Shown: in pieces, positions 1,711 through 2,808 of the stretch
Layout: the number at the start of each line of letters is the position of its first letter
How positions within the stretch are numbered: position 1 is the stretch's first letter
IMG/VR virus record: IMGVR_UViG_2703718803_000022
Strand: one strand, 5' to 3'
From: a virus
Lineage: Duplodnaviria > Heunggongvirae > Uroviricota > Caudoviricetes
Length of the DNA stretch: 8,933 nucleotides
Position numbers and translations under genes: made by a program
Notes under the pieces: generated by a model
The model's database searches: none
Told to the model about the DNA's origin: nothing
What the model saw: only the letters and a program-made list of their open reading frames with translations

Positions 1711-2007
1711 ATGCCAGCGCCTCTGTATGGTGCGGATGACCCGCGCAACTGCTCCGGTAGCTCCAAGGCGGAGGTGCTGGGAAATATCAAAAACAATTTC
1801 GACGCGTTTCTTGCTCTGACACCAGAAACAAAAGCAGAACGGATGTACCGACGCGATATACAACTCGCGCTAAAACAGGAGAAGGACCGAACAAACGAAA
1901 CAGCAATGAGACCGTTGCGAAAAGCGACAATAGACAAATTCCCTGAATATATCGACCCGCGCCTGCGTAATTACCGCTCACGCTATGGCGCTATCAGTAA
2001 TAACTGA
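1711..2007 (+). CDS. Hypothetical phage protein (98 aa)
   Basis: Complete ORF in the co-directional operon with a weak AAGG RBS about 11 nt upstream. No recognisable motif. Confidence 0.55.
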
Positions 2008-2017
2008 GGAATTTACC

Positions 2018-2182
2018 ATGAGAGGACTTGCATACAATCCCGGCATTCTTCCGGCAGAAATGATTATTCGCCAACGCGTAAAGCCAATGCCATCGAGAGA
2101 GGAATTGCTTAAGCGAAAGAGTTTCTGCTCTGTTAATGATAACAAATATCTGAATGCGATGTGGCGGAGTGGGAAGAAATGA
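2018..2182 (+). CDS. Hypothetical small protein (54 aa)
   Basis: ATG at 2018 preceded by TGAGGAA (8-nt spacing). Stop TGA 2180-2182 overlaps the ATG 2179 of the next gene (ATGA). The ORF-track start at 1985 lacks an RBS. Confidence 0.45.
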
Positions 2183-2808
2183 AACAAATGACACTAATTG
2201 AGATGGATGGATTTCTGAAAGGTAAATGCATCCCATGTGATTTAAAGGTTAACGAAACAAACGCTGAATATCTTGTGCGTAAATTTGCTGAAGCGGAGGC
2301 CAAGATTTCGGCTCTGTCCGAAGACCAGCAGAAAGCGATTGAGTCAATTAAGCAGGCTGATTCGGCTGTTAAGTTGGCACACGAGAAGTTTTCGGCGCTT
2401 GCGGCGGAGAATGAGCTGGCTCGTAAGGCAGTTCAGGCATTATGCGATGTTGTTGGCGACAACACCGAGGTTATCGCTGAGGTGGTTGGGCGAGATGGCG
2501 TTCTGGTTATTTTGGAGGCCATGAAGGCAACAGGAAATATGCCAGCCACCGATGCTTTTCTGGCTGAAATTCGTGCGGAGGCTCGCAACGAGGGGATTAA
2601 CTATACCGCAAGCCGTCTTGCTGCTGCTTTCAACCACGGATTTATCAATAAGTCTTTACGTGAAGTTTTCGACGTTACGCGCATGATTCTGTCAGCAAAA
2701 GAAGAGTTAGCTAATGAATCGCATCCGATTGATGGCCTGTCCGGTGAATATGCAGAGAAATCCCTTGAAGAATGGGCGGAACGGCTTCGCAAAGGAGGCA
2801 ACCAGTGA
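2179..2808 (+). CDS. Hypothetical phage protein (209 aa), largely helical and acidic
   Basis: ATG 2179 with GGAG 9-10 nt upstream (the ORF track gives a GTG at 2161). Stop overlaps the GTG start of the next gene (GTGA at 2805-2808). Confidence 0.65.

Follow-up and report, generated by a model that had tools for sequence, protein, structure and literature searches.

The interval from 1711 to 2808 of the window (the whole 8,933-nt stretch of DNA analysed) very probably holds three separate, already catalogued early-left genes, which are ordered as abc2–orf56–eaE of phage P22. As originally predicted, the three ORFs, 1711-2007 (98 aa, gene 1), 2018-2182 (54 aa, gene 2) and 2179-2808 (209 aa, gene 3), are open on the + strand, and they correspond to PGAP coding sequences in identical E. 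coli genomes. They had been described as showing no recognisable domains, a description corrected by the matches of gene 1 to PF11043, of gene 2 to PF10930 and of gene 3 to PHROG 614. By homology, gene 1 is Abc2, the P22-type RecBCD hijacker already studied genetically, biochemically and by cryo-EM, and hundreds to thousands of homologues were found for each of the three genes. Nothing categorically new was found, and the discovery value is small, since gene 1 belongs to a textbook case of RecBCD hijacking and RefSeq already carries names for genes 1 and 2. Beyond the corrected domain content, the useful outcome is the assignment of an Stx1a prophage to the HK620-type Sak4–SSB–Abc2 class.

Table 1. 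Features of the window discussed in the text, with their coordinates and identifying evidence
Feature	Position	Strand	Remarks
IS1203 end (IS3-family)	1..219	+	The copy interrupts the PL operon 10 nt ahead of the kil stop codon
Small ORF, 62 aa	226..414	+	Position of HK620 hkaM; annotated CDS in the identical prophage
Sak4-like ssDNA-annealing ATPase	423..1103	+	Core-only RecA/Rad51-type; opens the recombination module
Phage SSB, cognate to Sak4	1100..1687	+	Start overlaps the Sak4 stop as ATGA
Gene 1, abc2, anti-RecBCD protein 2, 98 aa, pI 9.6	1711..2007	+	Pfam, PHROG and PDB matches
Gene 2, DUF2737 family, P22 Orf56 homologue, 54 aa, pI 10.4, net charge +7.5	2018..2182	+	PF10930, PHROG 1117
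Gene 3, N-terminal module (aa 1-47)	2179..2319	+	PHROG 583 at 1.1e-15, residues 3-49
Gene 3, long helix / coiled coil (aa 48-92), then variable linker (aa 93-121)	2320..2541	+	AlphaFold2 helix over residues 48-92
Gene 3, C-terminal EaE domain (aa 122-209) and stop codon	2542..2808	+	Starts with PATDAFLAE motif
Coupling junction AAAGGAGGCAACCAGTGA	2791..2808	+	Combines a ribosome-binding site with the GTG start of the following gene and the gene 3 stop, TGA; encodes the tail RKGGNQ
Ead/Ea22-like gene, 135 aa, GTG start	2805..3212	+	PF13935 at 1.5e-18

The prophage and its recombination module

The window corresponds to the early-left (PL) arm of an Stx1a-converting lambdoid prophage at wrbA of E. 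coli. The interval 1600-2900 was 100% identical to Stx1a-converting phages, and positions 220-8933 were 100% identical to prophages integrated at wrbA. Identity to the uninterrupted prophage begins at window position 220, and IS1203 copies in E. coli genomes are 98-99% identical to positions 1-232. The IS1203 end is located upstream of all the genes described here. Since IS1203 is placed between the module and PL in the present genome, expression of the module here is uncertain. At the gathering threshold, Rfam gave no RNA families in the window. No promoter-like sites were found on the + strand, and eight terminator-like hits were counted on both strands within 1..4200, versus a mean of 4.4 (sd 2.1) in shuffled sequences, of which the two on the + strand are unconvincing; this is consistent with one operon.

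Upstream of gene 1, a Sak4-like protein (PHROG 2872 'Sak4-like ssDNA annealing protein', 1.5e-108; Pfam AAA_24, 2e-07) is followed by an SSB (PHROG 743 'single strand DNA binding protein', 8.7e-67). In HK620 the neighbour of Sak4 is likewise an SSB, and a Sak4–SSB–Abc2 module has been described for that phage (PMC5928155). The window shares with HK620 hkaM–sak4–ssb–abc2 both the order and the gene types, namely a small ORF, Sak4, its cognate SSB and Abc2. The small 62-aa ORF matched nothing in Pfam and NCBIfam, and it co-occurs with Sak4 in related loci. Thus, the module belongs to the HK620-type Sak4–SSB–Abc2 class, with abc2 as its last gene. Two differences from HK620 were observed: the present module sits in an Stx1a prophage with an IS1203 insertion before it, and its Abc2 is 62% identical to that of P22, versus 94% for the HK620 protein (PMC5928155). 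NCBIfam gave no family for any module gene, except for coiled-coil noise with gene 3, and the PADLOC models gave no meaningful match to the four proteins searched.

Gene 1 as an Abc2 protein

Gene 1 matched Pfam PF11043 (Anti-RecBCD_p2) at 1.2e-35 over residues 1-98 and positions 1-97 of the 97-position profile, with a score of 122 bits versus the curated cut-off of 25, and PHROG 656 (abc2) at 1.9e-44. Its alignment with the 'Anti-RecBCD protein 2' chain of PDB 8B1T/8B1U (2.7e-32; 8B1T chain A) runs from end to end, and PGAP names it 'phage anti-RecBCD protein' in the identical E. coli genomes. Gene 1 and P22 Abc2 are equally long, share the C-terminal tail and are both encoded promoter-distally, as the last gene of the recombination module, gene 1 behind Sak4 and SSB. 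The identity of 62% rises to 15 of 16 positions over residues 1-16, and a dN/dS of ∼0.20 between the two genes indicates purifying selection. At ∼60% identity, gene 1 represents a sequence type divergent from that of P22 and HK620, and its partner genes encode Sak4 and SSB, whereas those in P22 encode Erf and Abc1.

Among the 15 RecC-contact residues listed for 8B1T, eight are identical in gene 1 (A3, C14, S15, G16, L36, E39, K41 and R47) and two are conservatively changed (K44R and H48R). The changes R13N and Y30F remove side-chain contacts that P22 Abc2 makes through R13 and the Y30 hydroxyl, so that the affinity of gene 1 for RecC could differ; the remaining changed positions are backbone contacts. 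Pro68, the residue proposed to enter the PpiB active site (PMC9836394), is kept within MRPLRKAT, versus IRPFRKAT in P22.

Family membership is shown by the Pfam, PHROG and PDB matches, and a mechanism can be proposed by homology to P22, for which the action of Abc2 on RecBCD has been described (PMC9836394). The N-terminal half of gene 1 would bind the Chi-recognition ('inactivated helicase') domains of RecC, and the host prolyl isomerase PpiB would be engaged at Pro68. The helicase activity of RecBCD would be left largely intact, while the normal Chi response would be stopped. Processed DNA ends are then assumed to be passed to the annealing protein, here Sak4 with SSB, instead of being degraded or channelled to RecA. 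HK620 abc2 gave no stimulation of Sak4 oligonucleotide recombineering (PMC5928155), so the hand-off from RecBCD to Sak4 stands as an assumption.

Abc2 is among the anti-RecBCD proteins named for lambdoid Rec modules (PMC12315714). The host-modulating role expected from the position is borne out for gene 1 as a 'Gam-like' activity predicted by homology, but its supposedly uncharacterised agent is the known Abc2. Lambda Gam is a functional analogue, an early-left phage protein that neutralises RecBCD, yet it is non-homologous to gene 1 and acts as a DNA mimic, blocking the site of DNA entry and, with it, every RecBCD activity. Profile searches of genes 1-3 with the lambda Gam families gave no match. 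Kil, another candidate put forward for the three genes, is encoded separately upstream in relatives.

Orf56 and the EaE-like protein

Gene 2 matched PF10930 (DUF2737) at 4.1e-29 (100.7 bits versus a cut-off of 25; residues 1-52, profile positions 1-52 of 53) and PHROG 1117 at 1.2e-37, and RefSeq already names it as DUF2737. It is ∼70% identical to P22 Orf56 (72% by tblastn, 68% of MAFFT alignment columns), is of about equal size and likewise lies between abc2, 10 nt away, and eaE, whose start it overlaps; the C-terminal five residues differ. The dN/dS between the two homologues is 0.12 at a dS of ∼2, indicating purifying selection. A C-terminal motif of 24 residues is kept even in distant members, from phages of Escherichia, Salmonella, Cronobacter and Serratia. 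DUF2737 gave only 98 clusters in a set of 1.84 billion representative proteins, nearly all of stand-alone proteins of 45-80 aa. Longer database proteins carrying DUF2737 were considered as informative domain fusions and rejected, for in them a deletion or frameshift has joined DUF2737 to a piece of Erf, EaE or DUF551. A PDB sequence search with gene 2 gave no match, and literature searches yielded one incidental mention of DUF2737 and no functional study of orf56.

The conserved motif of gene 2 most likely serves as a short ligand peptide, which a partner from the host or the phage would bind. A more specific proposal, which we regard as possible but rather unlikely, is that Orf56 acts as a host-directed effector peptide, whose motif would bind a conserved enterobacterial target, alone or with the coupled EaE-like protein, in anti-defence or lysogeny control.

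Gene 3 matched PHROG 614 at 7.4e-89, and it is labelled 'hypothetical protein' in RefSeq. The original prediction had called it acidic and helical; with a pI of 5.0 and a net charge of -9 over 209 aa it is indeed acidic, and it is predicted to be all-helical at low confidence. AlphaFold2 modelling of the full-length protein with a 24-sequence alignment gave a helical model (pLDDT 52), and that of the C-terminal domain alone with two sequence clusters gave four helices, also at low confidence (pLDDT 58). Foldseek comparison of the latter model with the PDB returned nothing below E 4.5, and a PDB sequence search with gene 3 returned nothing at E up to 1. Thus, the homology and structure searches that had been proposed for the three proteins revealed clear homology to a characterised protein for gene 1, while the gene 3 models are of low confidence and genes 2 and 3 have no PDB match.

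PHROG hits and alignments show gene 3 to be modular. Its C-terminal domain is nearly invariant in an alignment of 24 E. coli relatives and is 42% identical to P22 EaE over 85 aa (E 2e-20), whereas residues 93-121 form a variable block. P22 EaE (named 'ead/Ea22-like family protein' at NCBI) occupies the same position after orf56 and has the homologous C-terminal domain, but it is shorter (165 aa versus 209 aa in gene 3, which has the extra variable block), and the N-terminal modules of the two proteins differ (MQQVKIYTASPSDL... being the second of the two N-termini compared). The central coiled-coil segment, with an 'AENxxLK' pattern, is common to gene 3 and the 193-aa Salmonella variants of EaE. 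Database matches of segment 2320..2541 were all sub-threshold and to coiled-coil families. Phage_Mu_Gam appeared below threshold amid such coiled-coil noise (13.8 bits versus a cut-off of 28.3), and in PADLOC the one hit was a weak coiled-coil match to LmuB (E 0.0013, 15 bits).

PF13935 (Ead/Ea22-like) did not match gene 3 at E up to 1. In relatives such as P0177, PF13935 replaces the N-terminal module of gene 3 while the rest is 80% identical, which makes gene 3 a domain-swapped relative rather than a Pfam-defined member. Judged from the sequence, gene 3 is an EaE-type member of a mosaic group of coiled-coil 'ea' proteins. As a homologue of lambda Ea22 it was rejected (BLASTP E 15); the two share the early-left location between the recombination genes and xis, and a three-part layout of a short N-terminal part, a coiled coil and a C-terminal domain. 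Lambda Ea22 is a pro-lysogenic exo-xis protein, and the NMR structure of its C-terminal domain has a mixed alpha-beta fold (PMC10834534), whereas the C-terminal domain of gene 3 is predicted, at low confidence, to be all-helical. Gene 3 is most likely an oligomeric early protein that is non-essential for growth, and by analogy to lambda Ea22 in gene position and coiled-coil architecture it may influence the balance between lysis and lysogeny or the physiology of the host. A literature search on eaE found no functional study.

Gene linkage and alternative readings

The tight coupling reported for the three genes was confirmed in part. Both the ATGA overlap between genes 2 and 3 (2179-2182) and a GTGA overlap (2805-2808) were seen in the sequence. 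However, genes 1 and 2 do not overlap but lie 10 nt apart, the stop codon of abc2 forming part of the ribosome-binding site of gene 2 (TGAGGAA), and the GTGA lies outside the trio, as it joins gene 3 to the downstream Ead/Ea22-like gene, whose N-terminus and C-terminal tail resemble lambda Ea22. Such packing runs through the whole ea region and accounts for the translational coupling of genes 2 and 3 and the gene that follows them; it is no evidence that the trio works as one machine.

The distribution of the genes argues against a single three-gene unit. Among 80 IMG/VR DUF2737 loci, abc2 preceded DUF2737 by 10 nt in 66 and by 297 nt in seven, and an EaE-like N-terminus began at the DUF2737 stop codon in 77, even where the remainder of the protein differed. 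Conversely, DUF2737 followed in 77 of 80 P22-type abc2 loci, and a scan of genome contigs with the DUF2737 alignment gave only five loci, all close relatives. In divergent DUF2737 loci, the upstream ORF was Abc2-like in 10 of the 96 scored, and abc2 occurred anywhere in 24 of the 100 fetched. DUF2737 stands behind a RecT–exonuclease pair in Cronobacter phage ENT47670; behind RecT, a Gp157-like ORF, a SANT/Myb-like ORF and DUF5405 in locus L047, where the Gp157-like family was assigned from a homologue in locus L096 and the SANT/Myb-like ORF was judged by eye; and near the lysis genes in virulent Guernseyvirinae-type phages. The three genes therefore do not form a single evolutionary unit, abc2 being part of the recombination module while DUF2737 is found behind other modules as well. 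In the effector-peptide proposal, DUF2737 would stand where the recombination module gives way to the variable ea region, in hundreds of temperate phages and also in some virulent ones.

DUF2737 and the EaE-like protein could alternatively form a pair, in which the basic peptide sits on the acidic coiled coil in a ratio fixed by the ATGA overlap, as the first cassette of the ea region. The opposite net charges (+7.5 versus -9) and the junction kept in 77 of the 80 close loci would fit such a pair, as would the divergent loci, in which 63 of 93 scored downstream ORFs fell into one single-linkage cluster with coiled-coil, EaE-like members. The order DUF2737 – EaE-like – Ead-like recurs in ENT47670, and in a Serratia phage DUF2737 is followed by an Ead/Ea22-like gene. 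In other loci, however, the coupled downstream gene is unrelated (PAPS-reductase-like, or a 215-221-aa protein with no family match), the N-terminal module type of gene 3 is also found in other phages behind an HD-hydrolase gene, with no DUF2737, and the junction could be conserved as a linker for recombination and say nothing about interaction. We consider the pair unlikely.

That the trio is a novel anti-defence or host-takeover unit with no known relatives, close to what was originally predicted, is improbable. Its early-left position is typical of such genes, and genes 2 and 3 are conserved under purifying selection, with no solved relative in PDB searches and no known function. Yet both fall into named families annotated in P22 for years, gene 1 being Abc2 already refutes the proposal for that gene, the trio does not travel together in divergent phages, and no meaningful PADLOC match was obtained.

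Equally doubtful is a role of DUF2737 as an Abc2 accessory subunit, replacing or complementing P22 Abc1, so that genes 1 and 2 would act on RecBCD together. Both proteins are basic, abc2 directly precedes DUF2737 in 66 of the 80 close loci, or in 73 if distances up to 300 nt are counted, DUF2737 follows nearly all P22-type abc2 genes, and the 10-nt spacer is common to P22 and the window although the abc2 genes are only 62% identical. But these samples consist of close relatives, so that shared descent explains the linkage, which weakens to the few Abc2-like neighbours counted in divergent loci and gives way to other modules in ENT47670, L047 and the virulent phages; in addition, Orf56 was absent from the RecBCD–Abc2 complexes that were purified and whose structures were solved (PMC9836394). 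Since the linkage holds only among close relatives, DUF2737 as an obligate partner of Abc2 was rejected.

A reading of genes 2 and 3 as filler in decay, or as ORFs called in error, that persist only between selected genes is hardly credible: their function is not known, the region is heavily mosaic and some database homologues are deletion or frameshift fusions, but the low dN/dS of gene 2 and its motif kept across phages of four genera, the near-invariant C-terminal domain of gene 3 with its P22 EaE counterpart, and the ribosome-binding sites and coupled starts of all three genes speak against it.

With the interval read as three catalogued genes in the P22 order, its residual value lies in Orf56/DUF2737 and EaE, which are widespread, under purifying selection and had no published function in the literature searches, making them reasonable candidates for accessory-gene screens as already run on the neighbouring abc1 and abc2. 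In other phages, the RKGG(N/S/K)Q tail encoded at the gene 3 junction is also the C-terminus of many EaE-like proteins and of some DUF2737 members.

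Gene 1 is an Abc2-family member in a P22-type arrangement

The three genes constitute the known P22 abc2–orf56–eaE arrangement with real ORFs and couplings, and the first two are already named in RefSeq. All three frames were found open and in agreement with the PGAP gene calls. Gene 1 begins 23 nt after the SSB stop and is separated by 10 nt from gene 2, its TGA stop falling within the ribosome-binding site TGAGGAA; the gene 2/gene 3 junction is an ATGA overlap, and the gene 3/Ead-like gene junction is a GTGA overlap with AAAGGAGG just before it. The two overlaps given in the original prediction are present, and since all junctions from 414 to 3872 are ≤23 nt, tight packing characterises the operon as a whole rather than the trio. 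Comparison with P22 at saturating dS yielded dN/dS values of 0.20 (gene 1) and 0.12 (gene 2), indicating real coding genes.

Coordinates of features in the window and in related loci (L-numbers)
Feature	Position	Remarks
IS1203 (IS3-family) copy, end	1-219	junction 219/220; window begins inside it
Small ORF	226-414	62 aa
Sak4-like gene	423-1103	PHROG 2872, 1.5e-108
SSB gene	1100-1687	PHROG 743, 8.7e-67
Gene 1	1711-2007, +	98 aa; PHROG 656 (abc2 anti-RecBCD), 1.9e-44
Gene 2	2018-2182, +	54 aa; PF10930 (DUF2737), 4.1e-29
Gene 3	2179-2808, +	209 aa; PHROG 614, 7.4e-89
RKGG(N/S/K)Q tail	2791-2808	encoded by AAAGGAGGnnnnnnGTGA
Ead-like gene	2805-3212	135 aa, GTG start
Direct repeat	3408-3550 and 4583-4725	143 nt, 96% identical
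171-aa ORF	4071-4586	open
DUF1382 gene	5427-5642	lambda Orf63 family; start overlaps DUF551 ORF end
DUF1627 protein	5678-6049	VQPVQPVQPVQ
Integrase stop/annotated wrbA start	8355-8358	ATGA overlap
WrbA reading frame	8355-8933	
Insert between abc2 and DUF2737	~3700-4000 in L037, L044, L065, L068, L069, L070, L075	297 nt
DUF5405-like protein	L047:3723-4004	93 aa; 33 loci among L093-L192
94-aa protein	L179:3201-3485	loci L273-L302
HigB-family toxin gene, then HTH-domain gene	L001:2809-3749	same prophage, outside window

The absence of recognisable domains did not stand, as Pfam matches were found for genes 1 and 2 and PHROG matches for all three. Gene 1 matched PF11043 (Bacteriophage P22 anti-RecBCD protein 2; 1.2e-35) over its full length; it also aligned from end to end (E 2.7e-32) with the PDB 8B1T/8B1U chain named 'Anti-RecBCD protein 2' and is 62% identical to P22 Abc2. 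By sequence it is an Abc2 family member, and by the original prediction's own criterion such homology to a characterised anti-RecBCD protein refutes the 'unknown function' proposed for it. In the RecBCD–Abc2 cryo-EM study, Abc2 leaves RecBCD helicase activity uninhibited, and its Pro68 is engaged by host PpiB (PMC9836394). Mapping the 15 RecC contact positions from that study onto gene 1 revealed 8 identical to P22 Abc2, including E39, K41 and R47, and the conservative changes K44R and H48R, while the side-chain contacts of R13 and Y30 are lost through R13N and Y30F. Gene 1 keeps P68 and the C-terminal tail, and 15 of its first 16 residues match P22 Abc2. The upstream genes encode a Sak4-like annealing ATPase and an SSB, giving a module of the same type as hkaM–sak4–ssb–abc2 of HK620 (Hutinet et al., PMC5928155), and a survey of lambdoid recombination modules published in 2025 places Abc2 among the anti-RecBCD proteins and HK620 Sak4 among the strand-annealing proteins (PMC12315714). 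We therefore infer that gene 1 most likely acts by the P22 mechanism, namely that RecBCD would be captured via RecC and DNA ends would then feed the phage's own annealing system.

DUF2737 at the border of recombination modules

Gene 2 is the homologue of P22 Orf56 (~70% identity; 72% by tblastn, 68% of alignment columns), which follows abc2 at a distance of 10 nt and overlaps eaE, and it is strongly basic (pI 10.4, net charge +7.5). A DUF2737 profile search over 1.84 billion representative proteins yielded only 98 clusters, almost all stand-alone at 45-80 aa; longer proteins are products of deletions or frameshifts that join DUF2737 to pieces of Erf, EaE or DUF551. In distant members, from phages of Cronobacter and Serratia and from virulent Salmonella siphoviruses, only a C-terminal motif is retained.

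An obligate partnership with Abc2 was considered, and near relatives show the linkage: among 80 IMG/VR loci carrying closely related DUF2737 copies, abc2 lay 10 nt upstream in 66 and 297 nt upstream in 7, was absent from 6 and truncated in 1, regardless of whether the recombinase was Erf, chimeric Erf or Sak4, and DUF2737 lay downstream in 77 of 80 P22-type abc2 loci, all near relatives as well. The linkage did not hold, however, when 100 loci were retrieved with divergent DUF2737 sequences as queries; among these, the adjacent upstream ORF was Abc2-like in only 10 of the 96 scorable loci and abc2 occurred anywhere in only 24. Common upstream genes there were DUF5405-like (33 loci, the commonest, usually joined to DUF2737 by an ATGA overlap), Abc1-like HTH (14), SANT/Myb-like (9, judged by eye, with no Pfam match) and Gp157 (5); Cronobacter phage ENT47670 has the order RecT, exonuclease, DUF2737, EaE-like, Ead-like, and in one Serratia phage and one Cornellvirus DUF2737 lies near lysis genes. 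So varied an upstream side rules out obligate partnership. The following gene begins at the DUF2737 stop codon nearly always, and in 63 of 93 divergent loci scored it fell into one single-linkage cluster with coiled-coil, EaE-like members. DUF2737 thus marks the point where the recombination module, of whatever kind, gives way to the variable ea region.

Some distant DUF2737 genes are preceded by a 94-aa protein that lacks a PF11043 match and resembles Abc2 only in its C-terminal tail (…YRTRNGMISNN; pairwise E 3e-5); this may be a highly divergent relative of Abc2 keeping the tail, a part left unmodelled in the cryo-EM study (PMC9836394). DUF2737 lies downstream in only 4 of 30 such loci.

Gene 3, an EaE-type mosaic

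Gene 3 is an EaE-type mosaic protein with >8000 database relatives. Partial matches to PHROG 583 (aa 3-49), PHROG 368 (aa 38-209) and PHROG 28257 (aa 156-209) indicate a modular build, and the 378-aa PHROG 14548 spans gene 3 plus the start of the Ead-like gene. In the family alignment, the N-terminal module is conserved and is followed by a coiled-coil segment, then a variable block, then a near-invariant C-terminal domain from PATDAFLAE, the last being 42% identical (E 2e-20) to the C-terminus of P22 EaE, an 'ead/Ea22-like family protein' in NCBI naming. Gene 3 has no PF13935 match; some relatives (P0177) carry this Ead domain in place of the N-terminal module. Homology to lambda Ea22 was rejected, no similarity being found, and it is the next gene that resembles the Ea22 N-terminus; only layout is common to gene 3 and lambda Ea22, a tetrameric protein with a short N-terminal domain, coiled coil and C-terminal domain and a pro-lysogenic effect (PMC10834534, PMC7093339). 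The predicted acidity of gene 3 was confirmed (pI 5.0), and two AlphaFold2 models were all-helical as predicted but of low confidence (pLDDT 52 and 58); a Foldseek search of the PDB with the C-terminal model returned nothing below E 4.5. Any functional proposal for gene 3 would be by analogy.

The RKGG(N/S/K)Q tail of gene 3, whose coding segment is also ribosome-binding site and overlapping start/stop, also ends many EaE-like proteins and some DUF2737 variants in other phages (protein alignments A1, A2), and this segment may be a conserved coupling cassette that also serves to link ea genes in recombination.

Source prophage and other features

Interval 1600-2900 is 100% identical in Stx1a-converting phages LC744186-LC744193 and ~99% identical in many Stx2a phages, and prophages in complete STEC genomes are 100% identical to 220-8933. 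Their annotated + strand order is cIII, kil, small ORF, AAA ATPase, hypothetical, 'phage anti-RecBCD protein', 'DUF2737 family protein', hypothetical, 'ead/Ea22-like' and, after further genes, excisionase, integrase and wrbA, so the + strand is the early-left (PL) operon direction of a lambdoid prophage at wrbA. On this strand no sigma-70-like promoter was found, and terminator-like matches were unconvincing, not clearly over shuffle expectation; no Rfam family matched. The IS1203 copy sits 10 nt short of the kil stop codon and 6 nt upstream of the 62-aa ORF, the first module gene. It separates the recombination module from PL in the source genome, and its insertion may have a polar effect on the entire recombination/ea operon. 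Among the matches listed, it is absent from otherwise identical prophages in complete genomes; two related entries carry IS600 elsewhere in the region. Upstream of the window, just downstream of the repressor gene, lies a HigB/HigA-like toxin-antitoxin pair.

The direct repeat gives two different genes, a 152-aa ORF and a 303-aa DUF551 ORF, a common ~47-residue N-terminal module. Within the 171-aa ORF, the PGAP annotation is limited to a frameshifted pseudogene at 4071-4249, and 4250-4582 is unannotated; the ORF has no Pfam match, and its segment …IEAKCSRADLL… looks by eye like a PD-(D/E)xK-type motif. The DUF1382 gene shows that part of the lambda-type exo-xis set is present downstream despite the HK620/P22-like recombination module, and the DUF1627 protein carries a short tandem VQP repeat coded by repeated CAGCCAGTG-type units. 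The WrbA frame starts differently from native WrbA, whose first dozen codons, including the start of the flavodoxin fold, appear to have been exchanged on prophage integration.
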